Shown here piece after piece: positions 37,641 to 58,019 of a DNA stretch of 64,000 nt (position 1 is its first letter; every line of letters starts with the position of its first letter). Origin of the DNA: Vermamoeba vermiformis. Its lineage: Eukaryota. The notes under the pieces were generated by a model, which was not told the DNA's origin, made no database searches, and saw nothing but the letters and a program-made list of their open reading frames with translations. The position numbers and the translations under genes were made by a program. The stretch covers positions 1-64,000 of the forward strand of contig JBEWZL010000080.1 in NCBI GenBank assembly GCA_045837725.1, given 5' to 3'.

Positions 37641-39607
37641 TGTCAATAACTTGTAGCGTGTGCTGTTGATTGAATTGTATGAGGTAGATGAAATGAAAAG
37701 ATTCGCCGCGATGGTTTTTATGCCTGCGGGCCACGTGTACGATGTGATTGTAAATTTAGTAAAAAGTACCCAAATTTCAATGTGAAACATTTTGAAGCCT
37801 TGATGACAGGTCGCCGAAAACATTGAAATAATATATAAGGAGATAAATCATATACTGTCCAATAAAAGGTCCTATTGTCGTCGTGCATCTTCTGCTTCTG
37901 AATAACTTGTGAAAATAGAATTCAATCTTTTTAAAAGAATTGCCTAATATGAGCAATTTCCTTGATCCAAGCTATCAAATAATGAGACGACGTTGATTGA
38001 GTTCGGGTCACTCCTAGTATACTTTCAAAAAAGTGCTGCAGAATGAGTTTATGGAGATCTGTCGAAATCACAACGTTGGATCGCGCAGGACAATCCCGTG
38101 AAGCGACATACATTGCACGATTACGCGCGGACCAACTAAATAGAAGAATATCAACGAAACCGTGCCGAAAACTCAGAAATCGCATTTATTGGACGGAATT
38201 GTCGGATTTGTTTCAAGAGTTTGCTTTTTTTTATCGATTAATGGCGGAATGTTGAAAGATATTGTAAACACAGTCCAGACAAAGAGGTAATCTGGAAGTA
38301 ATCTCCCTCGAAACTTTTTTGGATCTCTTCCAACTTTCTTACCCACCTTGTTTCGAACCTCTAATCTGAAATATCACCCATGCGTACGTATAATCAGTGT
38401 TTTATCGCAGCGGGACTACTCATTGCAGTGATCTCTATCGCGAACGGAGCCGAAGTGCTTGCTAACTCAGGTTATCCGTGCCTGGGTGGAAACGCGCAGA
38501 GAACATACAAAATCGATAGGAATGTAAGTAATATTGCAGCTTGCTATTCGATTAACCGCTTTTTTGTGCACGATAATAAATATTGCTTTAATATTCGTGC
38601 TAATTCTCCACGCTGTTTAATAATTGCTAAACGTGTGTTTAAAAATAGTAAATTGGATATTTATACTAATTTTATTAGTTTCATTGTCCGGCGCAGACCA
38701 ACGGAAGGTCAACAGTTTTGAATGTTGCCTGGATTTGGCCGCCAGATAACTTTGACTTCGATTTCGTCAGTACTGAAATTACTACGGATGCGGAGGTAAA
38801 AATAATTTCCTACGATTACCGTTTATATCAAAGTTTAATTTTAATTTTAAAGGATCACATCTACGTACAAGGAAAAAATGCGACGACTAATATAATTTAT
38901 CGAGTACACTTCGAGAATGGAACATTATCGACTACTGATAGCGGGTATAATAATGTTCTAAATATCACCGTGATATTAATTTTTTGGTACCAAAAGGTAT
39001 ATTCCGACGGGGGATCCGCCAGCTTCCCTCACTCACGTTGCTAATGGATTTATGTACATGGCCTCGGCAACATGGTCTGAATACGTAGAAGAAAGTTCAA
39101 TGAGCGCATTTGTTACAGCGTCGCATACCGTGGCTGCTACGAAACCCTCGTCGTACGTGCCCTTCGGCAAGTATATGCTCAGATCCAACGTGGGAGCGGT
39201 CGCAGTTAATGATTATTCCTTGACCTACTGGGACTCTAATGTGCATTTGTTCGACACCAATGCTCCGAACTACCAAGAGGGCCGACCTATTGAGGTCGTA
39301 ATAGGGTCCAACGCGACCTCGGAATTTTGCATTGTTGTCACGGACAGAAGTCCATTCCCAGAATACCCTATTCACTCAGATAGTACGCCCCCTCTAGTTG
39401 CTACCGGAGGTACCTCACCGCCAGTTCGCGCTTGGTTCGAAGACGGACTATTTTACGTTCTTGGTACACAATCTTTTTTGGTTGTAGACGTGCGTAACAA
39501 CTTCTAGCGAAGTTATCATCTCACATTTTTTCTTTTTTTAGTGGTCTAATAGCTCTAATAATATCGATTATTCTCTTAATGGCGGCATCGATGGCCTTTC
39601 TAAAGAT

Positions 39608-39680
39608 GGTAGGAAGTTTTAACGCGTGACAACGTGGAATAAAAAACTTTTGTAAAAGATTTGCAAAAGATTTGCAAAAG
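39608..39680 (+). repeat. Left terminal inverted repeat with internal TTTGCAAAAGA-like tandem units
   Basis: Reverse complement of 49936-50008 with about 5 mismatches. Confidence 0.95.
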
Positions 39681-40217
39681 ATTACCAAATCTTTGGACCA
39701 ACGAAACAAAACTTTTGCTTTATTCAAACAATTCTTTTGACAACGAATAAACGAGTTTTTTCACGTAATTTTTGCTTATTGTGAAAGCACTCTAGAACTA
39801 AGTGCGAGATTAAGTCCTTCTGCGTTGCTGTGCGTAAATTATTGTCCTTCAAGTATTGTCGCAGCTCTTCAACGTCGGCGGAATTGACTGCCTTTGACTT
39901 GAACAATTGTGGTTGAAACCCGTTGTTACGCAACTGTTCAAACGTTGACGAGTCGGTGGTATGACTAACGAAGAATAATTTTGCAGGCAGCTGGTCAAAT
40001 TGGTCGGCCAAGAAAAGGAGTTCCGCACGCGCTTTTTCCGTTGGTGCTAACTTGCTGCGAGTAACGCTATAACAGGGGTTAGAGAGGTACTCGATGTTAA
40101 ATTATTTCTACGCACCTTGCATTATAATTGAGTACGCAGTGCTTAACAATTATGAGGTTCAATTCGAAAGAAATGTTTCCACTAATTTGCTGTGCCATTA
40201 CGGATAGATAATGGTGC

Positions 40218-40389
40218 TGTGACACAACGCCTACATCGCGTGCTGTGGATTATCCCACCAGGATTTAGATTTGTGATTCGTCACGTGCTCGTGACATGTC
40301 TTGTACTTTTCTTTATAAATAAATACTCGTTCTATTCTACTCGAGAGTGCACGACTATTGCTCTTTATTTAAATCATAGTTACATCACA
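40218..40389 (+). repeat. 5' LTR
   Basis: Appears identical to 46024-46195; TG...CA ends; contains AATAAA. Confidence 0.97.
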
Positions 40390-40391
40390 TT

Positions 40392-40402
40392 TGGCGACAC
40401 CT
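40392..40402 (+). promoter_or_regulatory. Primer-binding site (TGGCGACACCT)
   Basis: TGG starts 2 nt after the 5' LTR; implies a tRNA with discriminator G and 5' end GACACCU (a Ser tRNA is a guess). Confidence 0.7.
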
Positions 40403-40421
40403 ATCGAAACGAACTTTTGCG

Positions 40422-41879
40422 ATGGCGGACAAACTTCTGAAGTCTGCCACAGAGGCCGCTAACCGACACAGTGGCACAACCACCTCTAGTGGTCGTCGTG
40501 TTTCTCGCTTTGCCCCGGAGACTAGAACCCTGGACGACGACGTACCAATGACCGATTCAAATAACGGTACCCCGAAAGAGACTGAATCGAAGGCTAATCT
40601 GGAGTTCTTGACAAACGTCTTTACGCCTGTCAAACCCGATTACCAACCCCTTCGTAACAATAACAATCTGGACGGGTTTAACGTCGGAAACAGAGTCCAA
40701 GAGACGAGTTCCTTCGTTTCTGAAGATCGCGAGTCTAAGGAGGAGAGATCCACCGAAGATCGCGCTCCCAAACGCAGAATCTTGCAAGAGGATGACGATC
40801 GCCAAGCGGTCGATCATGATCAAGAGAGATTCCGCTTTGACCCAGGACTCTTCGCCCAGCGTGCTAACCTCATGCAGCTCGAGATCATGAAGTCCATTAC
40901 TGAGCGTCTTGCGTCAATTTCTGAGCCAGCGGTAACCTTCACGGTACCAGCAGATCTTCCTGTTTTCCGCGGCGACGACGAAAAAGACGACATGATGTTT
41001 GAAGAGTGGATTGAAGAAATGATCAGTCACGCGCGCATCAGCAACCTAAAAGAAGACGCTGTTTGCCAAACTTTGCTCCGAAAGTTGGAACAGCCCGCTA
41101 AAGGCCGTATTCTCGACACCAAGCCAGCTGATCGCGACAACCTGGACAAGCTCGTTAAATTGCTCTACGAGTTCTTTGGTAGCACGAAAGAGAAAGTAGC
41201 AGCTAAAATCCGAGAAATCAACGACAATCCTCAAAAGGAAAACGAAACCGGAACTGCTTACTTAAACAGGACAGCGAAGGCGTATCGATACGTCAAAACT
41301 GCTCCTGAAGACAAGTTGATTTTGCTCCTCACGAACGTTCAAAAGTCCTACGCTAAAGCTATCCGCAAGTGCACTGGTTACGAAGAGGCCGTCAAAACGA
41401 TCATCCGCAAAGACGAAGAAGACAAGATCTTGACCCGTCAAACGAAGGCGACCATCAACACCGTTCATGGGCATCAATCCTACGACCAGGAGAACACCGC
41501 TTGCCGAGATCAGATCCAATATCTCAAGGATAAGTTATTCGAGATTGCAAAATCCTTAAATTCCAACGGATCTCCCAAATTTGGAAATTCTAAATTTAAC
41601 CAGAATTCAAATTCTAACTCTTCGGTTAAAACCTACCGATGCTCCGTGCATCAGGTGGACACGCATACAGATGCTCAATGCCGTGCCCAAAAGCGCAACA
41701 ACAAGGGAGGCAAGAAGTTCAACAACAACAACAACAGATCTAAGTGGGCCAAGACCAGCAAGGCCATCGAAGATCTCGGGACGCGCGTCGAGAAGGCTAT
41801 CAACGCAATCGAACAAGCCAGTGCCAAGGTCATACCTGGGCCGAATACTGACGCGAATTCGGCGCAAGCAAAAAAATAG
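40422..41879 (+). CDS. gag: Gag protein
   Basis: LPVFRGDD..FEEWIEEM, PQKENETGTAYLNR (MHR-like), CSVHQVDTHTDAQC knuckle. Confidence 0.92.
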   Translation: MADKLLKSATEAANRHSGTTTSSGRRVSRFAPETRTLDDDVPMTDSNNGTPKETESKANLEFLTNVFTPVKPDYQPLRNNNNLDGFNVGNRVQETSSFVSEDRESKEERSTEDRAPKRRILQEDDDRQAVDHDQERFRFDPGLFAQRANLMQLEIMKSITERLASISEPAVTFTVPADLPVFRGDDEKDDMMFEEWIEEMISHARISNLKEDAVCQTLLRKLEQPAKGRILDTKPADRDNLDKLVKLLYEFFGSTKEKVAAKIREINDNPQKENETGTAYLNRTAKAYRYVKTAPEDKLILLLTNVQKSYAKAIRKCTGYEEAVKTIIRKDEEDKILTRQTKATINTVHGHQSYDQENTACRDQIQYLKDKLFEIAKSLNSNGSPKFGNSKFNQNSNSNSSVKTYRCSVHQVDTHTDAQCRAQKRNNKGGKKFNNNNNRSKWAKTSKAIEDLGTRVEKAINAIEQASAKVIPGPNTDANSAQAKK

Positions 41880-41925
41880 ATGGTGGCAGCGATGCCGACT
41901 CCATCGCTGCTATCTCCGCAGAGTC
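41870..41925 (+). promoter_or_regulatory. Programmed -1 ribosomal frameshift signal (A AAA AAA + stem/pseudoknot)
   Basis: Slippery heptamer 41870-41876, 5-nt spacer, 13-bp stem 41882-41894/41902-41914, loop GACTC complementary to GAGTC at 41921-41925. Confidence 0.8.
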
Positions 41926-44900
41926 AACACCCCCACCTAGCACTACCACCCCGGCCTACTCACCCATACGGATATCTGATCGAGATGTCCTGGCCATGAT
42001 CGACACGGGAGCTGGATTTACCCTGGCCGATCATACGTTCGTTTCAACCCTCTCACCCCCGCCAACCTACTTTCATTGCCCTCTCGCTCTTGAAGCCGCC
42101 AACAAGTCTTCTATTGTTGTGCGTGGCTTCACTCATCTACCGCTCCTCATCGCTGGATTTCGAGTCACCGTACCTTTCATCGTAACAGAAGGTCTCTCTA
42201 CTGACGTGATCATAGGTAACGATACTCTTAAATTAATAGGCGCGACTTTAAGTTACACCAAGCGCATTATCAAAACTAAATTTGGAAATACGTCACTAAT
42301 ATGTCAAAAACCAATGTCAAAAATCTTTTTCATTACCCGGCGAATTTTATGTCCGGAAGATATTGAATTTCCACCGCGATCTGGAACACACTTCGCGGTG
42401 CCAGTTAATTCTGTTAAAAATTCTAGCGAAGACCCACCTCTGCAAGATGAGGCCATCGTTTCATTCGAGCCGTCACCAAAGGTCTTGTCCGACACCAGCT
42501 TACGCGTAGCAGGAACGCTCGACACGATTCTTGACGGCACCATAATGATCAACATGGCAAATCCAACGGAGTTTCCGATCACGCTAAAGAAGGGTACCCC
42601 GCTAGGACGCCTATCTCCGGCATTCGAACCGGAGCCGGTAAATTTTATAACACAACCTACTAGTGACAAATTACCACCCGCTTCTTCCATGTCAGACGAG
42701 GAATTTTTAGATCAATTTCCTTTTGATCCAAATCTGACATCGGAACAATTAAAAATTACAAAGGAGACATTATTAGAGTTTAGAGATAGATTTTTAAGCG
42801 AAATTAGAACTACTGATATTCTACAGACTGAAGTTCAACATCGGATCTTCACCGCTCCTGGTGAGATCGTGCAACGACAACCCTATACATACGGTCCTGA
42901 AGAACGTAAGATCATCGACGAAGAAGTGGACCGTATGCTCGCTAGCAACATCATTCGACCTTCAACATCACCTTGGGCCTCACCTGTTGTCCTTGTTCGT
43001 AAAAAGGACGGATCAATCCGCTTCTGCATCGACTACCGCGGGTTGAATCGTATCACTCGACGTGATATGTACCCCTTGCCGCGCCTGGATCACACCATCG
43101 ACTCGCTCTCAGGAATGCTTTGGTTTTCAACGATGGATTGCGTGTCCGGTTACTGGCAGATCTTAATGGACTCGCTCGACATCCCCAAGACTGCTTTCGT
43201 CACTCACCGTGGTCTACATGAGTTCACTGTCATGCCTTTTGGTCTCGTCAACGCTCCAATGACTTTCCAACGCTCCATGGACATCATTCTCTCGGGTCTC
43301 AAGTACGAGATGTGCCTCGTCTATCTCGACGACATCATCGTGTTTGGAAGAACATTTGAAGAACACATCAGCAATCTACGTACTGTCCTCACTCGTCTGC
43401 GTCAACACAACATCTACCTCAAGCCCAAGAAGTGCAGGTTCTCGCAACGCTCCATCACGTTCCTTGGCCATCGGATCTCTGCCGAAGGAGTCACTACAAC
43501 GCCCGACAAGGTCAAGGCCATTCTGGAGTTCCCTGTGCCGAAGAATGCCACCGATGTTCGCTCCTTCTGCGGTCTTGTCAACTTCTACAGATCGCACATC
43601 AAAGACATCGCGACGTTGCAAGCACCCTTGAATAAAATCATGGGGAAAAGCGCCACGTGGAGCTGGTCCGACGATTGCCAAAAAGCTTTCGAAGGATTAA
43701 AAACGGCTCTGGCGAGCGCCCCCGTGCTTGGGTTGCCTGACTACTCGCTCCCCTTCACCCTCACCACCGACGCTTCCAACGATGGTATTGGTGCTATCCT
43801 CTCTCAACAACTCGACGGTATTAACAAGCCGCCTCGTGTCATAGCCTACTTTTCCCGTAAGTTAAACCCCGCCGAGAAAAACTACGGCATTACGGAGAAA
43901 GAGGCTTTGGCAGTCGTTCAATCCGTGCTCCACTTTCGTCCCTACCTCTACGGTCGCCGCTTCACAGTCATCACAGATCATCAAGCCCTCGTGTTCCTTC
44001 ATGCCAACCGCGCTCCAACAGGACGACTTGCCCGATGGCAGGCCGCCTTGATGGAGTTCGATTATGACATTGTCTATCGCCCTGGTTCAGCCAACGCCAA
44101 CGCTGACGCTCTCTCGCGTTACCCGTGCCCTGCTCCAGTCGTTGAGGCCCTCTACACGATCAACTCGCCCGACACATTCAACACGCCGCCTCAGCCTTGG
44201 AGTGAAGAAGAAATCATCGTCGCTCAAGAAGAAGATGAAGACATCAGCCCTTTGCTTCACTATATTCGAGATGGAATCGTGCCCACAGAAGATCTCAAGA
44301 GATTTCAAGCCATCAATCATCGCAAGGAATTTGCCATCGTCAACAACGTCCTATATCGTCTCTCGCCGCATCCTCTACTCAAGACTACAACTAGACAGCT
44401 CGTGCTCCCCGCCAAGTTCCGTTCCCGAGTGCTACACCTTCATCATGACACGCCCCTAGGTGCCCACTTTGGTTTCAACAAGCTCTACTATCGTCTCAAG
44501 CAAGAGTTCTACTGGCCGTCAATGGCTACCGATGCCCTCAACTACGTCAAGACCTGTACTGCCTGCAACGCTTACAAGACGCCCGTCGACAAGCCCATCG
44601 GAGATCTACAGAACCTCGTAGCTACTGAGCCCTTCGACATCATCGGAATTGACCTCGTCGGTCCCCTGCCTGCGACTAAGAAGCACAAGTTCAAGTACAT
44701 TCTCGTGATTCAAGACCTGTTCTCCAAATGGGTCGAGGCCTTCCCAATCAAGAGTAAAGACGCCCAACACATCGCCCAGATCATCATCAACGAAGTAGTC
44801 TGCCGCTTTGGCTCCCCGCGACAAATTCTCTCGGACTGTGGCAAGGAGTTCGACAACCGCATCATGGCTGAAGTGTGTAAAGTAATTGGCAGCGTTAAGA

Positions 44901-46006
44901 TTCGTACCAGTGGTTATCACCCGCAGACTAACGGTCAAGTTGAGCGTTTCAACAAGACGCTCCTCGCTTCAATTCGCCCGTTCATCAAAGAAGAAGGACA
45001 ACAAGACTGGCATCGCTTCATTCCGCAACTGCTCTTCGCGTATCGCACTGCCTATCATCAGAGTATCAAGACCTCGCCCTTCGAACTGCTGTTTGGCCGC
45101 ATTGCTCGCTCCCCGCTCAACTCAGGACTCATTCGCCCCGACACAGACCTGCTCGTCATGCCCGACACCTACGCTGCTGAAGTTTCTGGCCATTTCCTAG
45201 ACGCCTACGACATCGTACGACAACACATCGGATCTGCCCACGTGAAGATGCAACGCCTCTACAACAAGACTCGCCGCGACTTCTCATATCAGGTTGGAGA
45301 CTATGTGTGGCTACAATTGCGCCCCAAAGCCAATAAGAAGAAGAAACTCTCGCCCCAGTACGCCGGTCCCTACGTCATTCTCAACAAAGTCTCAGATCTC
45401 GTCTACAAGATCACCGACGCCGCCTACAAGGAGAAGAAGAAGAAGATCGTCAACATCAATCGACTCAAGCCCTACCTGTCCCGTGAAGATATTGAACCAA
45501 CGTCAAATGATGCCGCCGATCCAACTCCCGATCCACAAGAACCTGACACCGATGACTTCGAGGATGAGTCGGTGCCAGATATCGAGGAGGAGGAAGAAAC
45601 TGATGACGTTCTCAGTCATTCTGCTGATCAAGCTCTCGATCAAGCTTCCGCTCAAGTCCCGCTCTTCGACTTAGACCAGCCTACGCCGCCTACTCGCTCT
45701 GCTCGCTCTTCGCGACGCCTGGCTAACGCAGATTCCCACTTCCAAGACCTGTTCAACGCGCTCGCTAATCTCCGCGACACGTTCGAAGCTACGCCTAGCT
45801 ACTCGCTCAACGCACTCAAGACTCAACTCACAAGTCTACTCACCGCTGGATCACCCTTCGTGCGCTCTACACGACTTCACTCCCGCTTCGCAAAGGAAAT
45901 CAGCTCTCTCAGCTCGCGCTTCAACGCGATCTTCTTCCTGCATCGCCTCACCGAAGACTTCAACAACGAATTCAAGTTCGACTTGGAGAAATCGTCCAAG
46001 GCCTAA
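41870..46006 (+). CDS. pol: Pol polyprotein (PR, RT, RNase H, IN) in the -1 frame relative to gag
   Basis: IDTGA; SPWASPVVLVRKKDG.RFCIDYR; YLDD; TTDAS; HHCC zinc finger; GIDLVGP, SDCGKEF, GQVERFN; GPY. Confidence 0.97.
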   Translation, partial: KKIDGGSDADSIAAISAESTPPPSTTTPAYSPIRISDRDVLAMIDTGAGFTLADHTFVSTLSPPPTYFHCPLALEAANKSSIVVRGFTHLPLLIAGFRVTVPFIVTEGLSTDVIIGNDTLKLIGATLSYTKRIIKTKFGNTSLICQKPMSKIFFITRRILCPEDIEFPPRSGTHFAVPVNSVKNSSEDPPLQDEAIVSFEPSPKVLSDTSLRVAGTLDTILDGTIMINMANPTEFPITLKKGTPLGRLSPAFEPEPVNFITQPTSDKLPPASSMSDEEFLDQFPFDPNLTSEQLKITKETLLEFRDRFLSEIRTTDILQTEVQHRIFTAPGEIVQRQPYTYGPEERKIIDEEVDRMLASNIIRPSTSPWASPVVLVRKKDGSIRFCIDYRGLNRITRRDMYPLPRLDHTIDSLSGMLWFSTMDCVSGYWQILMDSLDIPKTAFVTHRGLHEFTVMPFGLVNAPMTFQRSMDIILSGLKYEMCLVYLDDIIVFGRTFEEHISNLRTVLTRLRQHNIYLKPKKCRFSQRSITFLGHRISAEGVTTTPDKVKAILEFPVPKNATDVRSFCGLVNFYRSHIKDIATLQAPLNKIMGKSATWSWSDDCQKAFEGLKTALASAPVLGLPDYSLPFTLTTDASNDGIGAILSQQLDGINKPPRVIAYFSRKLNPAEKNYGITEKEALAVVQSVLHFRPYLYGRRFTVITDHQALVFLHANRAPTGRLARWQAALMEFDYDIVYRPGSANANADALSRYPCPAPVVEALYTINSPDTFNTPPQPWSEEEIIVAQEEDEDISPLLHYIRDGIVPTEDLKRFQAINHRKEFAIVNNVLYRLSPHPLLKTTTRQLVLPAKFRSRVLHLHHDTPLGAHFGFNKLYYRLKQEFYWPSMATDALNYVKTCTACNAYKTPVDKPIGDLQNLVATEPFDIIGIDLVGPLPATKKHKFKYILVIQDLFSKWVEAFPIKSKDAQHIAQIIINEVVCRFGSPRQILSDCGKEFDNRIMAEVCKVIGSVKIRTSGYHPQTNGQVERFNKTLLASIRPFIKEEGQQDWHRFIPQLLFAYRTAYHQSIKTSPFELLFGRIARSPLNSGLIRPDTDLLVMPDTYAAEVSGHFLDAYDIVRQHIGSAHVKMQRLYNKTRRDFSYQVGDYVWLQLRPKANKKKKLSPQYAGPYVILNKVSDLVYKITDAAYKEKKKKIVNINRLKPYLSREDIEPTSNDAADPTPDPQEPDTDDFEDESVPDIEEEEETDDVLSHSADQALDQASAQVPLFDLDQPTPPTRSARSSRRLANADSHFQDLFNALANLRDTFEATPSYSLNALKTQLTSLLTAGSPFVRSTRLHSRFAKEISSLSSRFNAIFFLHRLTEDFNNEFKFDLEKSSKA

Positions 46007-46009
46007 TTT

Positions 46010-46023
46010 AAAGCGGAGGGAAA
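46010..46023 (+). promoter_or_regulatory. Polypurine tract
   Basis: AAAGCGGAGGGAAA immediately before the 3' LTR. Confidence 0.85.
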
Positions 46024-46195
46024 TGTGACACAACGCCTACATCGCGTGCTGTGGATTATCCCACCAGGATTTAGATTTGTGATTCGTCACGTGCTCGTGA
46101 CATGTCTTGTACTTTTCTTTATAAATAAATACTCGTTCTATTCTACTCGAGAGTGCACGACTATTGCTCTTTATTTAAATCATAGTTACATCACA
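46024..46195 (+). repeat. 3' LTR
   Basis: Appears identical to 40218-40389. Confidence 0.97.
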
Positions 46196-48235
46196 GTGCC
46201 ACGCTTCTAACGGCGATGTTCCTTGGGCTATCGTTTTCTTAAATTGTAAAAAATTAAATTATAGTCACAAAAAATTCGGAACTTACTTCAACTAGCGAGA
46301 TATTAAATAAGCTTGTTAGGGTTTGTTCTTTACATAAGTTTTCGACGGCATTAGAAATGACCTCGTCAGCAATTCCGTCTCGAAATTCTAATTTAGAGTT
46401 TCGCCTATAAGATGGGTTGTTAATCGTTATTATTAGCATGTCGATTGTAATACTTTTGCTTATTCAGTAGTAATATAATCTCATTTGTGTTGTAACGAGA
46501 GGCTTCTGTAGGATTGCTGAACTTTTGGACCCAGTTCCGCAAAGCAGCTGACAGGTCGGCAGAGGTTTTGTACCCGTCATTCTTGATCTTGGCAAGCAAA
46601 CCGGCAATCTCTTGCACACTAACTTTGTAGTCAGGATGAGATCGAGAGAGTAATTTGACGACTCTCATCTTTGCATGGTAGATGTCCGTTAGCAAGATTG
46701 GGTCTTGCGAGTTCGAAGTAGAGAAGTGCTGTCGAAAAGCGTTTAAGATTGCAGATGAGTCTAGCATAATTAGTGTGAGTTAGAAGAAGTCGACACCAAC
46801 AACTTACCCACAATGACGTTATCTGTATATATATACTTGGTAAGTGGACGTTGATGGTGTTTCCAAACTTCAACAAACACACTGGCAGCTTTTGTGCGAT
46901 CATCTGAGGGCACAATGCAAATTTGAAGCACGTGCCCAGATTCGTTGCTGACAGAAAATAGACTTGATTTCATTTTCATCTGATAAAGCGATTATTCTAA
47001 GTTAATAACATAGTTATGGAAGGTGTAATTACCCGTTTTGCTTCATTTTCGGAATGTGCGGACATATTTTTTACGATTTTATAAGTGTGATCTCCTCAAA
47101 GCACAGTTGTCGAATTTAAATGGTTTTGTGTTCGAGTGAAATCTTCTTCCTTGATTGTTTGCCAATAGGACATGTAGATGTTCTTGATGGAATGCATAGT
47201 TAAAGATAAAGCTTGCTCGCACATTCCATTGTTGGCAATCCATTGCAAGACCAAAATTCTCTTCACACAAGCAAAATTGAAACCAACCTGAGGCATTGTA
47301 TTATAAATGTAGCATGCTAGCGCTGTTGTGTAGAGCATCCGTGGGCCAACTATCATGGGTACACTTGGGAAGTGTTGTTTGTCAAGGCTTGCAATGACAT
47401 CTTCTGATAGATCTGTAAATAGTTCTCCGTGGTGCGTACACAGATAGCGCTGATATGTCAACGAGTACACGCCTGACACGTCAAAAAGGATCCGACAGTC
47501 AGTTCCGTTTTTGATGACACGGCACTGCTAGATGTTAACCAACCTAATGAAAGAACACTGATATACATACACCATCCTTTTTTGCGCACAATCGAAGCTT
47601 GACTTTGCGAGATCCCTTCAGCCAACAAAACTCGCGTTGTTGAAGACCATTTATGGATAAATCTAATGTTGAAAATTAGCACAAAAGTCGTGAATTTATT
47701 GAGCGTACCTTCCGTTGAATCACTGTCCGAGTCTCCGAAACAGCTTGAATTTTCTGATTCATCTTCGGACTCCGATTTGTCCTCGTCACTCTCAACATCA
47801 GGTAATGCAGCAGCAATATCATTTAAATTGAAGTTGTCTATCAGCAATATAGTCGAAGTCCATCACTTACATACCAAGCAGATCAACGGGCTTCGAAGTT
47901 GAAAGTGATTGTTGCATTGACTTTGGTTCTTGCAAGCTATCTTTTGATGCTACCTTCCATCCATGCTCACGTTCTGACACTACTGAATTAATAAAATCAA
48001 AATGAAACACTTACACTTCAGGTGAACGCCTCGAATGTGCCTGCGAACATTGGATCGAAACGTTGACGAATAGTCGCAGCAAGTGCAGTGGTGAACAGTA
48101 TAACCAGTAGTATTCAAAGTGCAGTACAGCACCTCAACCTTCTTGTCAAGTTCATCCTCAGTTGTGGTCTTCTCCATTTCGTGTCGGTCCGATTCAAATT
48201 AATTAAATTAAACTGAAGCGAACACAGACCGCATA

Positions 48236-49902
48236 ATGGCAACAAGTAAGTTAAGATTACAAACGTTAAATCAATTAAACAACTGCAGATAAAAAGCGTG
48301 CACGTACAACAGAAGACACAGCACCCACCGTTACTAGTATGGATTTAGATTCGTATTTTTTTGCAATTTATTAATGAAATTTTATAAATTAGAGAAGAGC
48401 AAAATTGCTGATAAAGGTAGTGTCAATATAATTCGTAATCGTAATCAGTCATTAATTATTGTCAGAGAAAAAGACGGGAACAAGCCACAACAAATCCGAG
48501 CCAAAAAATAGTACGTAGAGCTCTGAATTATTGATAAATTTCTAAAACCCATTCATTGAAGCAAGCACCACGACCACGAAAGAGCTGCACGAAAACCAAA
48601 GTACGGCAAATCTTTTGACCAAACTTTCGTCCAAAAATCTACGAGATTTCACTCGTTAGCATAATCTTTTGTCACGTTTTGCACTAAACTTTTTTTCAGG
48701 CACGCACAACACCCGCAGCACAAGTAATAATACCAATGAAAAAAAATCAACTGAAAATGATGCACTCAGCAAGTCTAAGAATACTGAGGCCTCAATTAAA
48801 TCAGATCCGGCTACCTCAATTGTCCCCACCGAGATCGGCAACATTATATCACTTTTTGGCCAAGATAAGAGTACGTATACAATTTCAAAACTGTCATAGC
48901 TAGTTAATAATATTAATAGAGCCTTGGTATGCAATAATCCGAAAAAAATTGGAAAACGATCAGATGGAGGTCACGTACTTGGAGGTAAGTCTCACAACAG
49001 CCTTAAAAAATATATAATTGGTTAATAATTTAATTTAGTTAAAAGAAGGTCGTAGAGTCCTGTTTACAGAGGGTTCGACTGAGATCGTTCCGAACAACTC
49101 CCTGATCTGCATTGTTTCCGCTTCTATTGCAAAGGACGGCGTAGTAATTAAAGAAGCTGAGCAAAAGAGGGTGCAAAATACCCAAATAAAAATTGGTAAG
49201 TGGAGTAAATTATAAAATTTTTTATTAATGACGCGATCTAGATCGGCACATCGCCAACCCTGCCCTTGAGCATCGGCAACGAATTTCAAATTGGGAATTC
49301 CCGGGCCAATACGTCAAGAAGCACTTCAAAGAGCCAGGTACAATGCGTTTCTCTTAAAACCGGATCTAACAAAGTTAAAGACACGCAGAAATTAGTCCTT
49401 GGGGAACTGGCAAGGGACCTAATCCTCCTTTGCGTTACCCAAAATTTAGACAAGCATGGCTTCTTAAATAAGCAAGTGTGGTCGAAGAGCAAGGACGGCA
49501 ACGGAGCGACGATGTTTCCATTTCTACTCTTTATGCGATTGATAACAATGTCACTCGAGCATGGAACCTGGCAACAAATTGCAGACGGGGATATTAAATG
49601 GCAAGCAACTGTCACTCTAGCAAACGTAAACTACCGTCAAGTAGCAATTTGCGGTAAGTCTTTCTCATCGCGTCTAACGCAGTCAACTTGAATTGACAAA
49701 ACATTGTATAGGTGGCATGTCTGGACCAACTTAGGAAGCAGCGCTTCGAGTCTTAATGGAATTAGGGTTTATTTTGCCGTTTGACAAATTTAACGGACAA
49801 GTGACGATTACTATTACACTTCCGCCGTACAAACCGTTTGAAACCACACCTGAGGTTGTTGATTTAACAACTGCAATGTTAGAAGAATTAAACGAAGACT
49901 AA
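48236..49902 (+). pseudogene. Transposon accessory gene: low-complexity N-terminus, BAH/Tudor-like barrel, C-terminal winged-HTH-like motif
   Basis: About 10 in-frame exons; IGNIISLFGQDKKPWYAIIRKKLENDQMEVTYLE..STEIVPNNSLICIV; NYRQVAICGGMSGPT*EAALRVLMELGFI with TAG at 49732-49734. Confidence 0.7.
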
Positions 49903-49935
49903 TATTAATAAATAAAACAATATTTACCGAAAAAA

Positions 49936-50008
49936 CTTGTGCAAATCTTTTGCAAATCAATTGCAAAAGTTTTTTATTCCACGTTGTCACGCGTTAAAAC
50001 TTCGTACC
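49936..50008 (-). repeat. Right terminal inverted repeat
   Basis: Reverse complement of 39608-39680. Confidence 0.95.
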
Positions 50009-51860
50009 CTAAAGATATGACTGAAAATTTTATTATGGTTCATCAAGGAAAATCATTTGCGCATTACTACTACAATGCAACTCGAGTAAGCACCTTTGAA
50101 AAGTTTATATAACGACAAACAAAAGTTATTGACCTTCGTTTTTCAGGCGGAGTTCATAGATCGAATTGGCTATGAATACATTACCTCGACACCAGCACCA
50201 GATTTTCAATGGCCGCCAATAGCTCAGCCTATTCTTTCTAAGCGTATGTGCAATCAGTTGAAAAGTAGTAGTTTTTTATTTGACTTTATGGCTAGTTGAC
50301 AACATCGTGCTGTACCCCAAAGGTATCAGCGGATCCAACGTGTACTTTGAAGGACGTAAATGGGGCACGTGGGAAGTTAAAGTCACCGGCAGAATGCCTA
50401 AAGGCGTTGTATTTAGCGCCAACGCTAATGTCACTGTAAGTTCAGGTTTCGGTCAACTTTCCTAATATGGAAAGAGACTGACACTAGCATGTATAGGGTG
50501 TGCCAATCTACGGTAACAATTGCGAGATTGCCATCGTGCACGACAACAAGTTGTACGGGTTGAGACCGCTGCCCATCCAAAACGTCGTGCCAATCTTCGA
50601 GTGTTACAATCCTGATACTGGCATTGCGTTCTTTTCGTACAACAACCTGGAACAAAACGCATTCGTGATCCCTCTGACACAAGACCGTAACTCTTTCACG
50701 CCAGTAAGTTTGCTGCTAGCGATAAAACCTCAATTTTGCTAATTTTTTGACAGTATTCGACACCAATTGAAGATTTCGATGTGGGCCGTGGACCAATCTA
50801 TCCGTTATCAGTACAGTTTAACGTTGGCAAGAACCTTCAAGGATATCATTATTGGGCCTTAGAATCGTCTACTGTCCCTATTCCTTTTGGCGACAGTAGT
50901 CTTATTTGTCCGACGAGTATGTGCAAATTTTTTGGTCCACACGAGTCTCATTTCTTTTTCCAGCTATCAATTTCGTTATCAAGCTGCGTGCTGATGGCCA
51001 ATTCCCCTCAGGATTCGGCGAAGTTGTTCGAAGCAAATTAGTTTCAGTGACGGGAATCAGTGACGCTCGTGTGACACTTGTCGAAGAAACGAAACTTCAA
51101 TCAAGCTGATTCAACTCTTGAAGCCGAGTTAGCTATTGCCCCAGGTACCTACTATCACATATATATTGCCACAATGTTAACGGGTCTGGTTGTAGATCAA
51201 CAGAACGTCGAAGAACAGCCCGCTGAAGTCGTCCAAAAATTCGTTGCAAATCAACAAGACGAATTTGTTCAACAAGTCAATACTGATACTAGTGCACCAC
51301 AGAATGTTACAGTTGAAAGTAAGCAGGATTTTGTGATGTGAATCTGACGGATCTGTTGCTAATTTTCATCGCTTAAGGTTTAAACGGCAAAGAGCTTAGC
51401 GGTCAAATCGTTGGTATCAAAGACTATGTCCCGTCACCTAGTGCCTCGGTCTCGCCAAGTGGTTCGCCGAGAAGTTCATCTGGGCCTTCATCAAACGCGC
51501 CAGCTACCTCTGATGCAACTATTGCCTTGCCGAGATTTTGGTCTGAGATTTGTCTTTGCACCGTTTTTCTGGTGTTTTTAAATATGTAAAACGATATCAA
51601 CAACTATAGTACTGCGAGCCTTGGTAACCCACGCAGATAAAAGCTCGTAATGACGAACTTGACCAATTTGAAAGTATTAAGAGCATTAAAAAGATGTCAT
51701 GATTCGTGACGATAATTTAACCCACTTCATGTCACTACAAAGACTTTCGTTCGACAGGCAATCCCTGATCAAAATTCGAACGAGACATTTTTTGACAGGA
51801 GAAGCACCAAATGAACACAATTGAAACAAAAACAATTGCCGACAAGAAGCAGTACCAGAA

Positions 51861-52927: not shown

Positions 52928-53233
52928 GACCGAAAGAAAAAGACGAACAAAGGCATCCGGGGGAAGAAAAAGACGAACAAAGGCATCTTTTACGTGTGTT
53001 ATTGCACAATTTCGTCCGGAATAAAGAAAAGTTCGGATCCGGCGCGAATCACAAAGAATTAATTTTGTATTCTTCGTATTTCAATTCTTTGTCGAAATTC
53101 ATCGTTATACTATCTGAGTTTTCATTGATGACATAGAATAGGCGCATTACTAATAGAAATCTAGAGCCTATTCTTGAAGCGAAATTATTTAAACAAGAGT
53201 GCGGTTGAAAGTATTTCGTAACAAAGTAACAAC

Positions 53234-53918: not shown

Positions 53919-56072
53919 CTAAGAATAATTTACTTCCGCGTCATTCAAAGCAACGCTCATAACGGCCTTATGATGACCAGTGTACGTTCGAATAGTTTCA
54001 CCTTGTTGCAAGTCCCAGAGTCTGCTTGAATGATCGGATGATGCTAATAAAAATGCTATTAGTTCATAATCGATAAGTCATTCATCAGGGCCTTTAAATG
54101 GTTCGAATCAAATTGGTGCTTGATGGCAATTTGACACGTGTCAAAACAAATCGGTAGTTAACAAATATCGCTCATATATTGAGCACTATTAATTAACGAC
54201 ATCTATTATACGATGTACTATATAAATACGCTATTTGGTTTCACGAGGAAACGATAGCGTAACTCAAAGTACGTGATCCACAACGATAAAAATTTCATGC
54301 TAAGGTCCTATCGCGAGAATGATAGAATCGTTATTGTGTAATTACCTGTAATTAAATAGGCAGAGTCCGATGAAAACACGCAGTCCCAGACCCATCGTTG
54401 ATGACCCGTCAATAATTTGTTCAATTCATATGTATTGTTCAATTGTACTTCGACTGTTGTTCGTGGATTTAACTCGTCATCGTCGTCAACGCGTTCAACG
54501 TAGTTAATGCCCGTGTGCCACACTTTGACTGTGTGGTCCGCTGATGTTGTTGCGAGTAGCCTAAAAACACCATCGAAATATCAGTATGATAAGATTTAAT
54601 AAGGTTAATAGTATTATAGTATCATAATAGGACTTAGGTAATATATAATAATTTGCGAAATGAAACTAAGCATTATACAGGCAAAAATAGATGCGGATCA
54701 CCGGATGCAGATCCGATTTTTTTCTTGATTATCTCGCATTCTATAGTGTTCTTAAATACACTAATACTATACGTACTTAGAATCAGGACTAAATTGTGCT
54801 TTCAACACGTATCTCTTGTGTGCCTCCCACTTCTGATCGAGTGCCGCTTGTGCAATGTCGCCTTGACGGAAACTGTAACCATAGCACATGCCTATATAAT
54901 AAAAAATCATTAATTAATACCTGCTATATATCACTTGCTTATATATTAAATAGTGAATTACCTCTGTTGTTAGCGATAACACAATGCGAGCCTAATGAAT
55001 TAATTGTAATTGAACGGATTGGTGTGTCATCATCTGGTAACTATAAAAAAGTATCAGTATTAGTACTATTATTTTGATTTATAAATAACAATAAGGTTTG
55101 AAAATAAAAGAGTTGAGTAAGACTCGATCGGGATCTTCAGCTTGATCCAAGAGGCTACAAAATTTGTTGTGCTCATTATTATTTAGCTCTATATTATCGT
55201 AGAGGTATTAACTTACAAATTCAGAGGTACATTCGTTGGTTCCAATATCATAAACTCGAATAACTCCATTTTGATAGCCGCAAATAAATTCTTCTTGATT
55301 AGGATGCAATGCGACAGTAGTGCATGGCTCAGTATAGGTAAATTCGCGTGAATGTGCATTAGGAGATCTATAGCAAGCATTTAAATCGAAATTAAGCTCT
55401 TTCAAGTTTGATCGGATTTGGTTTCGAAATTGAATTTGCTTAGAGAAACGTTTAAAGACTAATCGTCTCGTGCGTACAATGATAATGGTATTTTGATATA
55501 AATATATGGTATTGATTTAATTACGAACAATATCTAAGCGTAGATTCGTACCTGATATCCCAGATCTTGACTGTGCCGTCTTCAGCTGCTGAATAAAACC
55601 ATTGACCTTCTTTATGAAAGCCTAATGATGTTATATTGCCTTTGTGACCATTATAAGTGGATATCTAAAGCGAAAATCAGATCCGATCAGTTACAGCATC
55701 CATTAATTTTCAGTATCAATCGAATAACATTAATAAATACTTACCGCTTGAGGATTGTTGCCTCCAACTTCAAATAATTTAATTTGAGGGTTACCACCAG
55801 CGATGATATATTGTTTATTAGGAGATATTTCGATTTTATTGATTTGCTGCCATAGAAAATTAATTAGTCCTCTCTAATAATACCTATATATTATTTACAG
55901 TAATAATTGATAATTATTTGGAATTTTACGCGACTAGAATAATTTTCACAATTTATTTTTTTTTACTTACGGATTCGGCAAACTGTAGAGTTCTATAGCA
56001 ATAACCAGTAGGTACTTCCCACAATCTAATAGTATGGTCATATCCTGCGGTAGCTAAAATTACACTAGGCAT
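53919..56072 (-). CDS. LST8: TOR complex subunit LST8 (WD40)
   Basis: [69 protein letters not shown]. Confidence 0.95.
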
Positions 56073-56397: not shown

Positions 56398-58019
56398 TTA
56401 CATTAACAATTCATTGATGGCTCTATTCATCTTCTCTTTAAGTGCCTCGTGTTCGGTTAACAACTGTTTGTACTTGCCATTCACATCGTTCAATTCCGTC
56501 TGCAATTTCGCGATCTGCGCGTCTTTGTGGCTATCGTTATCGTTATCATTGCGTTCTTTTGTTGTAAATGTAATAATGTCGCTATTTTTAAGCTCCATAA
56601 CGTCATAATCATCTTCAATATCAACATCGTCCGTCTTGATCGACAAGAGATCTTGTTCGGAGACATCAAAAGTGGCTGCAATATTTCTTTTAAGCATATT
56701 GATTAGATCATTCTGTATATAACTGTCTTTTGCCAATGAAACGACCATCGCTCGCCATCCATCATTTCCTCGTCGAACTTTAAAAATTGAATCTTTTTTG
56801 GTTAGATCAATGTCATGCATAAACCACTTTTCTTCCGAGAAAATATCATCTAGTCCACATAAATAATGTTCTGAATGGAATCCCCAGCCCCATCCTGCTT
56901 CTACGAGTGATTTGTAACCAGGGCAGATCGAGTACTTAACGTTGTACAAGCCAGGATACAATGGGACCGATGGCTCCCATGCAATACTGTACCGGCCCTT
57001 TTCACCTTTTATAACGAATTTTCCTTCTATCAGTTGCTCTTTGTCATTCAGGATCTGAGATCCAAAAGTTAAATAACTCGATTAATTTAAAAAAATTACA
57101 ACTTACTTGAGCAATGCCGGCAACGCTCGAAAGAATTTTTTGTGGGTTTGGTATAAATCCTTGAGTAGACGCAAACGGCAGTTCGATAAAAGAATGACGA
57201 CCAGGTCCGGAACATTTCGCATTGAACCGTAGACTTTCGTGACCTTGTCCACGTAATCTTATCACCAAATGGAGCGTGCTTTCTATAAATTTCGTTACAG
57301 CCGACGGTGTGAGTATACTGATAGTAATTACCCTTCGTAATGTTGTAGTCTTCAATAGTTCTATTGTCTTCAAGTTGCTTTCCGGCAAATATCAATTTTT
57401 GTTGGTCTGGCGGTATTCCTTCTTTATTTTGAATCTAATATTAAAAATAAGTATTACTATATGTATAATAATTTATTTGGTAGGTTTTCAATACTGACCG
57501 CTTGTTTTATACTGAAGATGGGTTGGGACAAATCCACTTCAAGCGTGACCGTTTTGCCAGTTAGAGTCTAACAATGTATTAGCCCACCATAAGATGTAGT
57601 CATTTCTGTACCTTTAAGAAGACCTACAGAGACGTTAGCCGTTGGATCAAGATCGCAAACGAAATTCAATTCCAGAATTAATGTATCAAGTGTAATACAA
57701 AATATTATTGTTTTGTACCTGCACTGTTATTTCAGCGTTAGGATTAACGCACTGGATTGAGGCGTAATTTTTTAATCGCCCCACATCTCCGTCCTCCAGT
57801 ATTCTTCCATTAAAATACCATTCACAATCTATAAAGCTTCTAATTTAATTTTAACGATATGTTTTTAATATCGTGGGACTTACTGGCCCAGAATTGCCTA
57901 TGATTTTTACGCAGAAAATCTTTTAGCTGCGATACAGATTTCTTAGACGCGGCAAACTCGACCTTGTTAAACCTATTAGCGAATACTAAATATAAGGCAC
58001 GATCTTCTACTAGCGCCAT
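56398..58019 (-). CDS. Protein with an integral ubiquitin domain and a C-terminal coiled coil
   Basis: [17 protein letters not shown]..|[47 protein letters not shown]; a degenerate UBL-like segment precedes it. Confidence 0.85.

Follow-up and report, generated by a model that had tools for sequence, protein, structure and literature searches.

A micro-exon accessory gene, very probably conserved, in a compact DNA transposon with 8-bp target-site duplications

Introduction

The main two-protein models for end recognition or escape from silencing in DNA transposons come from Harbinger, En/Spm and MuDR/VANDAL elements. In PIF/Harbinger transposons, transposition requires, besides the transposase, the Myb-like (ORF1) protein, which is nuclear and binds DNA near the element ends. 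TnpA of maize En/Spm (a CACTA element) is a helper binding short subterminal repeats in both ends, and it arises by alternative splicing of the transcription unit that also encodes the transposase. A third type is represented by VANC of the Arabidopsis element VANDAL21 (a MULE), an accessory anti-silencing factor acting on the sequence of its own element.

The Harbinger-type two-protein design is stated in a passage on Nuwa in PMC12730594, where 8-bp target-site duplications (TSDs) are given for Zisupton. Zisupton is reported to be multi-exonic (PMC9297572), and 8-bp duplications and extra ORFs without predicted functional domains are reported for KDZ1 and KDZx1 of Cryptococcus in a preprint (bioRxiv 10.1101/2024.08.15.608186).

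In this study, a locus of this general kind was analyzed within a window of 64,000 nucleotides (the whole stretch of DNA under analysis), which is eukaryotic, has approximately 35–44% GC and contains short GT..AG introns. An earlier reading of the window, made from the sequence only, had proposed that positions 48236–49902 hide an accessory transposon protein encoded by micro-exons. Here, we describe the structure, splicing, conservation and possible role of this gene.

Results and Discussion

The host transposon and its termini

The gene is located within a cut-and-paste transposon of 10,401 bp (39608–50008), which measures approximately 4.4 kb without a retrotransposon nested in it. The borders of the element and the space between its two start codons are as follows:

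39600–39607, no strand: left target-site duplication CTAAAGAT, an 8-mer identical to that at 50009–50016
39608–39683, plus strand: left terminal inverted repeat (TIR), 76 nt, 92%, starting GGTAG GAAGTTTTAACGCG, with three tandem 11-nt units
48178–48235, no strand: 58-bp spacer of the two divergent start codons
49933–50008, minus strand: right TIR, 76 nt, found by the inverted-repeat search
50009–50016, no strand: right target-site duplication CTAAAGAT, identical to the left 8-mer

The TIRs match at 70 of 76 positions and the duplications at all 8 of 8. Three tandem 11-nt units of the TTTGCAAAAGA type are present in each TIR. In the left one they read TTTG[C/T]AAAAGA and occupy 39649–39681, and the right one contains one exact TTTGCAAAAGA copy at 49946–49956; the subterminal repeats pointed out by the earlier reading therefore exist and are placed inside both TIRs. 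All three exact matches to TTTGCAAAAGA in the window, and four of the eight with at most one mismatch, fall within the TIRs. The total of eight was compared with an expectation of 4.0 ± 2.1 and, with 8 of 100 shuffles reaching eight, is not significant; it is the clustering of the 11-mer in the TIRs alone that is meaningful, and not its window-wide count.

Between the TIRs, the accessory gene fills the space from the start of the transposase gene to the right TIR. A separate contig (153 nt) of the public run X4, described below, covers 48029–48177, its end falling on the first base of the start codon of the transposase. The 58-bp spacer and the contig ends may reflect a bidirectional promoter of very small size or transcripts that overlap. 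A search of the whole window for Rfam families gave 0 matches.

Several other features were observed in the window. A perfect 24-nt direct repeat with 30-nt spacing (52934–52987) is embedded in a K/E/R-rich open frame. Exons of a WD40 protein, presumably similar to LST8 as judged by eye, were found at 54308–55516 (minus strand), and a ubiquitin-like exon at 57096–57434. The WD40 and ubiquitin-like genes appear to be ordinary host genes adjoining the transposon.

Structure of the accessory gene

The accessory gene and its main signals are:

48236–49902, plus strand: accessory gene, 11 exons, 10 introns, 372 codons plus TAA (splice model and joints of the X4 contig)
49732–49734, plus strand: in-frame TAG (codon 317), with W at this codon in both relatives
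49907–49912, plus strand: AATAAA, 5 nt 3' of the accessory stop codon and ahead of the TIR (from the sequence)

The reading frame opens with the ATG at 48236, closes with the TAA at 49900–49902 and is assembled from exons 48236–48245 (10 nt), 48289–48336 (48 nt), 48393–48416 (24 nt), 48466–48510 (45 nt), 48562–48600 (39 nt), 48700–48870 (171 nt), 48920–48984 (65 nt), 49039–49195 (157 nt), 49242–49337 (96 nt), 49381–49653 (273 nt) and 49712–49902 (191 nt). The 10 introns are of the GT..AG type and 43–99 nt long, with a GC content of 18–38% (43% in the exons). A long ORF at 49242–49691 comprises two exons in different frames, separated by a 43-nt intron at 49338–49380 (donor GTACAA at 49338, acceptor AAAG at 49380), and this split restores a single frame. 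A ten-exon model, in which 49242–49653 was treated as a single exon, was rejected, since its frame breaks between 49195 and 49242.

Once spliced, the sequence has one internal stop (the TAG) in the frame of the gene versus 21 and 26 in the others. The sequence-only reading had assumed about 10 exons, a single TAG and several quoted peptides: the multi-exon spliced frame stands with a corrected count of 11 exons, the only internal stop is indeed the TAG at 49732–49734, and all of the peptides are found in the 11-exon product.

As to intron phases, 9 of the 10 introns are in phase 1, and the chance of at least 9 of 10 introns sharing one phase, computed from the splice model under equal phase odds, is approximately 0.001. 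The length of seven exons is a multiple of 3 nt, and the frame would survive skipping of any of them.

Splicing in public sequence runs

The modelled introns were compared with public sequence data. In run X4, one contig of 1131 nt, 99% identical to the window, skips 10 of the 10 modelled introns at the modelled joints, and it spans from 17 nt before the accessory ATG to 5 nt short of the end of the stop codon. Nine of its joints appear as GT..AG, and some of these could be cut equally well 1–2 nt away; the remaining one is listed as TA..GT, being 1 base off the modelled GT..AG with one mismatch in the adjoining piece. Every splice junction predicted for the accessory gene is thus present in this contig, the RNA type of the run being a guess made by software only, under another organism label.

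Within the compared region (46196–50030), no intron-bearing contig of X4 was matched, and none was matched on 46196–47987; for these reasons, an origin of the contig from cDNA fits better than one from genomic DNA. As the run type was only guessed to be RNA, the contig may instead be a processed DNA copy (retrocopy). It differs from the window coding sequence at five listed sites, four synonymous and one Q284R; this list is incomplete, because the shown pieces contain nine differences, of which four (near piece ends) are unlisted. In the last piece there are three differences, one of them unlisted, and the TAG, which the contig may lack, is placed 22 nt from the start of that piece.

The word depth in X4 was 13.3 for the accessory contig versus 3.9 for the 153-nt piece of transposase exon 1, such depth being a poor measure of expression. 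Three raw RNA runs of the source organism yielded 0, 1 and 0 reads per approximately 13 million records each and were rated as no test. In addition, 31-mers of the accessory gene were observed, at shares of 0.11–0.62, in runs under five other organism labels and in several water-type metagenomes.

Conservation of the gene and decay of the window copy

An exhaustive HMMER search with the translation of 49242–49655 against 1,835,955,588 representative proteins returned three matches at E <= 0.001, two of which are true relatives: P0001 (109 aa, E 1.7e-37, 65% identity to the query) and P0002 (124 aa, E 4.7e-18, 61% identity). A cluster mate of P0001, P0004, is longer (207 aa). All of these are unnamed short ORFs on contigs of 531–2114 nt, evidently prokaryote-style calls on eukaryotic DNA. 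The third match, the repeat protein P0003 (E 2.3e-05), is spurious: it aligns to query residues 16–62, which are mostly out-of-frame exon 9 or intron 9, the non-coding part of the query reaching residue 46 or 47. The conserved exons are:

49381–49653, plus strand: exon 10, conserved core, 59–67% identical to P0001, P0004 and P0002
49712–49902, plus strand: exon 11, helix, beta-hairpin and acidic tail, 75% identical to P0004

In the alignment with P0004, identity amounts to 66% for exon 10 and 75% for exon 11. At the exact site of intron 10, the relatives have 15 (P0004) and 14 (P0002) unrelated residues between the exon blocks. It is thus the exons, and not the intron, that are conserved. At the TAG codon, where a comparison had been proposed together with the earlier reading, both relatives (P0004 and P0002) have W, and TAG is one base from TGG. 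The TAG is therefore a defect of the window copy, which is, to judge from these alignments, a pseudogene of a conserved gene whose C-terminal 150 residues are 59–75% identical in the relatives. That the relatives keep the frame and the W at such a degree of divergence points to long-term selection. A reassigned TAG codon was considered and rejected, because in the window gag ends with TAG while pol and the accessory gene end with TAA, a pol frame of 1384 residues is open under the standard code and both relatives carry W.

For the N-terminal 218 residues, no relative was found with exon 8 as the homology query. A full-length annotated homologue is absent among the 1.84 billion representatives, which argues against a widespread host gene family. 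Searches with tblastn gave no relatives in metagenome, genome and viral contigs, and those with blastn and tblastn gave no second copy within the 64-kb window. The linkage of the gene with the transposase is seen in one element only. Taken together, the accessory gene is very probably real, spliced, transposon-borne and conserved, with a pseudogene in the window copy. The contrary explanation, a chance chain of short open frames, could appeal to five exons below 50 nt and to the lack of a Pfam match, but it is refuted by the HMMER relatives (E 1.7e-37 and 4.7e-18), by the 10 of 10 joints in one public contig and by the single stop against 21 and 26, and is practically inconceivable.

The transposase gene and classification of the element

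The second gene of the element is divided by the nested retrotransposon:

39724–40101, minus strand: last open frame of the transposase, 125 aa, severed by the nested retrotransposon; no Pfam match
40218–46195, plus strand: nested Ty3/gypsy LTR retrotransposon, 172-nt LTRs 100% identical, GTGC duplication, open gag/pol
46196–48177, minus strand: 5' two thirds of the transposase gene, ATG at 48177–48175, C2H2-like finger in exon 1

The finger gives a weak zf-H2C2_5 match (E 0.0026, below the cut-off). It is followed by a cysteine/histidine-bearing region and then by the motifs GDHTYK, IYTDN (in the exon 46808–46979, minus strand) and LLTDIYHAKMR (in the ORF 46420–46779), which we take to resemble the catalytic blocks of RNase-H-fold transposases. 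An in-frame TGA (47096–47098, minus strand) directly precedes GDHTYK, so that both genes of the window copy carry a nonsense codon: TGA in the transposase and TAG in the accessory gene. The transposase copy is broken twice, by this TGA and by the Ty3/gypsy element, which is 5,978 bp long and lies inside the 3' part of the gene. The latter encodes gag (499 aa) and pol (1384 aa), the pol frame at 41852–46003 matching Pfam families for protease, RVT_1, RNase H and integrase, as well as SH3_Tf2-1, and its insertion into the transposase gene is very recent. A GC content of 0.48–0.53 sets it clearly above the surroundings (approximately 0.38).

Searches with hmmscan, in which single exons or a TGA-read-through piece were used (exon fragments having lower power), detected no Pfam family on the transposase, including the KDZ domain PF18758 and the CxC models. 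A word-based homology search with two transposase pieces found no homologues, and PDB sequence searches with the transposase pieces found nothing. A piece of 143 residues ahead of the first catalytic D obtained Atlas feature scores of 0.96 for DUF6729 (201 of 256 features) and 0.91 for the KDZ-associated CxC5/CxC4, a lead that may be wrong, as only 3 of the best ten family-bearing matches agree with the top family. The combination of 8-bp TSDs and TIRs that is a hallmark of Zisupton/KDZ elements is found here (CTAAAGAT on both sides, 76-nt TIRs). Because of the 8-bp TSD, the multi-exon transposase and the Atlas feature scores, we lean slightly towards classifying the element as Zisupton/KDZ-like.

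Predicted features of the accessory protein

Upstream of the conserved exons, two further regions of the protein can be distinguished:

48236–48834, plus strand: most of exons 1–6, basic T/K/S/N-rich N-terminal 100 residues, pI 9.7, 60% S+T+N+K, with KKRAR and KKSK
48835–49195, plus strand: end of exon 6 and exons 7–8, hydrophobic, beta-like segment (judged from its sequence alone)

Residues 1–100 likely form a disordered, nuclear-targeting region, and the KKRAR motif noted earlier lies within it. The residues from approximately 100 to 186 may be interpreted as a barrel-like pattern; like the wHTH label, this fold name of the earlier reading is an interpretation. Single exons 6–8, which encode this putative barrel segment, gave no Pfam match, and exon 8 gave no homologue. 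At the other end of the protein, exon 11 encodes an acidic tail with a pI of 4.1, and P0004 has almost the same last helix.

No known family was recognized at the sequence level: Pfam returned 0 families for four accessory pieces, P0004 and P0002, and a PDB profile search for the accessory family returned nothing (best E-value 1). No match to a known HTH/WH family was present among these Pfam and PDB results, and no Myb/SANT domain was found with Pfam.

AlphaFold models were made for P0004 (exon 10, translated intron and exon 11) and for exon 10 alone, and both are poor (mean pLDDT of 54.9 and 54.3, respectively). At this low confidence, exon 10 is predicted as H-H-H-E-E (helices, then a beta-hairpin), and the exon 11 region as a helix, beginning at the W/TAG position, with a beta-hairpin after it. 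Neither the P0004 model nor the exon 10 model had a Foldseek match at E <= 0.001. With VIA on the P0004 model, 50 matches were listed, of which 43 align to an artefactual N-terminal helix. The other seven listed matches align from residue 52 on and are four CRP/FNR-family proteins, human ORC1, archaeal Cdc6 and RPC62; the chain ranges aligned in these seven are presumably winged-helix domains. Atlas's own, independent model of P0004 (pLDDT 0.49) has RepA_N, DnaD-type, Rad21 and HTH_41 clusters as the nearest ones at TM 0.40–0.47, all under the bar of the tool, and the Atlas features of P0004 residues 41–207 reached at most 0.78, with no family. Because two weak models point to the same fold class, the C-terminal domain of the accessory protein is probably a winged-helix.

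Proposed role and alternative explanations

From these data we infer that the accessory protein would work in the nucleus, binding DNA as a helper or regulator of a Zisupton-like element. The interpretation given by the sequence-only reading is thus supported in part, the specific function being a matter of conjecture. In the mechanism that we tentatively favour, (i) the basic disordered N-terminus with KKRAR and KKSK would take the protein to the nucleus, (ii) a C-terminal domain of winged-helix type (exons 10–11) would attach to DNA, its most plausible target being the three 11-bp TTTGCAAAAGA units of each terminal repeat, (iii) contacts with the transposase or chromatin would be made by the beta-rich segment in the middle and by the conserved acidic helix at the C-terminus (DLTTAMLEEL), and (iv) the protein would recruit or position the transposase at the ends, as the Harbinger Myb-like protein or En/Spm TnpA do. 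The explanation as a whole, with this mechanism included, is a working proposal, somewhat less than an even prospect, and the helper-of-transposition mechanism, drawn by analogy, is at best equally tentative.

The accessory protein could instead be host-directed cargo, i.e. an anti-silencing or chromatin factor that acts outside the transposition machinery, like VANC or TET/JBP. This is consistent with the TET/JBP genes carried by KDZ-class and other fungal transposons, as described in PMC12730594, and with the ORFs of Cryptococcus KDZ1/KDZx1, reported to have no predicted domains (bioRxiv 10.1101/2024.08.15.608186). The barrel-like pattern in the middle of the protein could likewise correspond to a chromatin reader. 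We nevertheless consider such a function unlikely, since the protein resembles neither TET/JBP nor any Pfam family.

Another possibility is a DNA-binding repressor or activator with the 58-bp divergent promoter or the ends as its target, tuning transposase expression or blocking transposition. Small winged-helix or ribbon-helix-helix regulators act so in prokaryotic elements. The winged-helix fold lead applies equally to such a protein, the start codons are only 58 bp apart, and the depths in X4 (13.3 for the accessory gene, 3.9 on the 153-nt transposase piece and none on 46196–47987) would agree with it; yet the 58-bp spacer contains no TIR motif and the predicted fold is uncertain, and this reading seems to us rather improbable.

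It is more doubtful still that a host gene without a role for the element was recently captured by it (Pack-type acquisition). Its short GT..AG introns are host-like, and the linkage with the transposase was seen in a single element. However, no full-length host homologue exists among the 1.84 billion representatives, the gene, which comes with an AATAAA of its own, exactly fits the interval from the start of the transposase to the TIR, and the relatives, at 59–75% identity, keep the frame and the W.

If the favoured helper reading is extended, the accessory protein may found a new class of eukaryotic transposon helpers, in which a chromatin-reading barrel is combined with a winged-helix gripping the 11-bp repeats and a transposase lineage outside all current Pfam models is thereby tethered or aimed; this is a long shot. 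If true, it would mean an undescribed branch or superfamily of elements with 8-bp TSDs and an obligatory two-protein machinery.

Comparison with known systems

In the literature on DUF6729, transposon winged-helix accessories and Zisupton, no published description of the accessory protein was found, and the papers retrieved on transposon accessory winged-helix proteins with subterminal repeats did not concern eukaryotic elements. In the compact element of approximately 4.4 kb, an orphan protein that probably binds DNA is combined with an unclassified transposase, probably of Zisupton-like type; if an intact copy exists, the element would constitute a small testable system for the role of the extra KDZ-class ORFs. 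For annotation, it shows that ORF-based views miss micro-exon genes (exons of 10–48 nt) inside transposons.

With PIF/Harbinger elements, the locus shares a second gene inside a TIR element. It differs from them in the lack of Myb/SANT, in a TSD of 8 bp and not 3 bp, in an unrelated transposase and in the divergent arrangement of its genes, the start codons lying 58 bp apart; moreover, DNA binding is only predicted here. With En/Spm, it shares short repeats at both ends (here three 11-bp units per TIR), whereas the accessory protein is encoded by a separate divergent gene, has no sequence similarity and belongs to an element with an 8-bp TSD. VANC is similar in being a transposon-borne accessory protein, in its case of a Mutator-like element.

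The KDZ class resembles the locus in the 8-bp TSD, the multi-exon transposase, the cysteine-rich region before the catalytic core (an Atlas lead) and the extra ORFs, which are set beside those of Cryptococcus by description only. In contrast to this class, the window transposase has no PF18758/CxC match, and the element is shorter (approximately 4.4 kb vs 6.4–10.9 kb). Extra genes in DNA transposons are already known; what is new here is the family of the accessory protein, together with its partnership with a transposase that matches no Pfam model.
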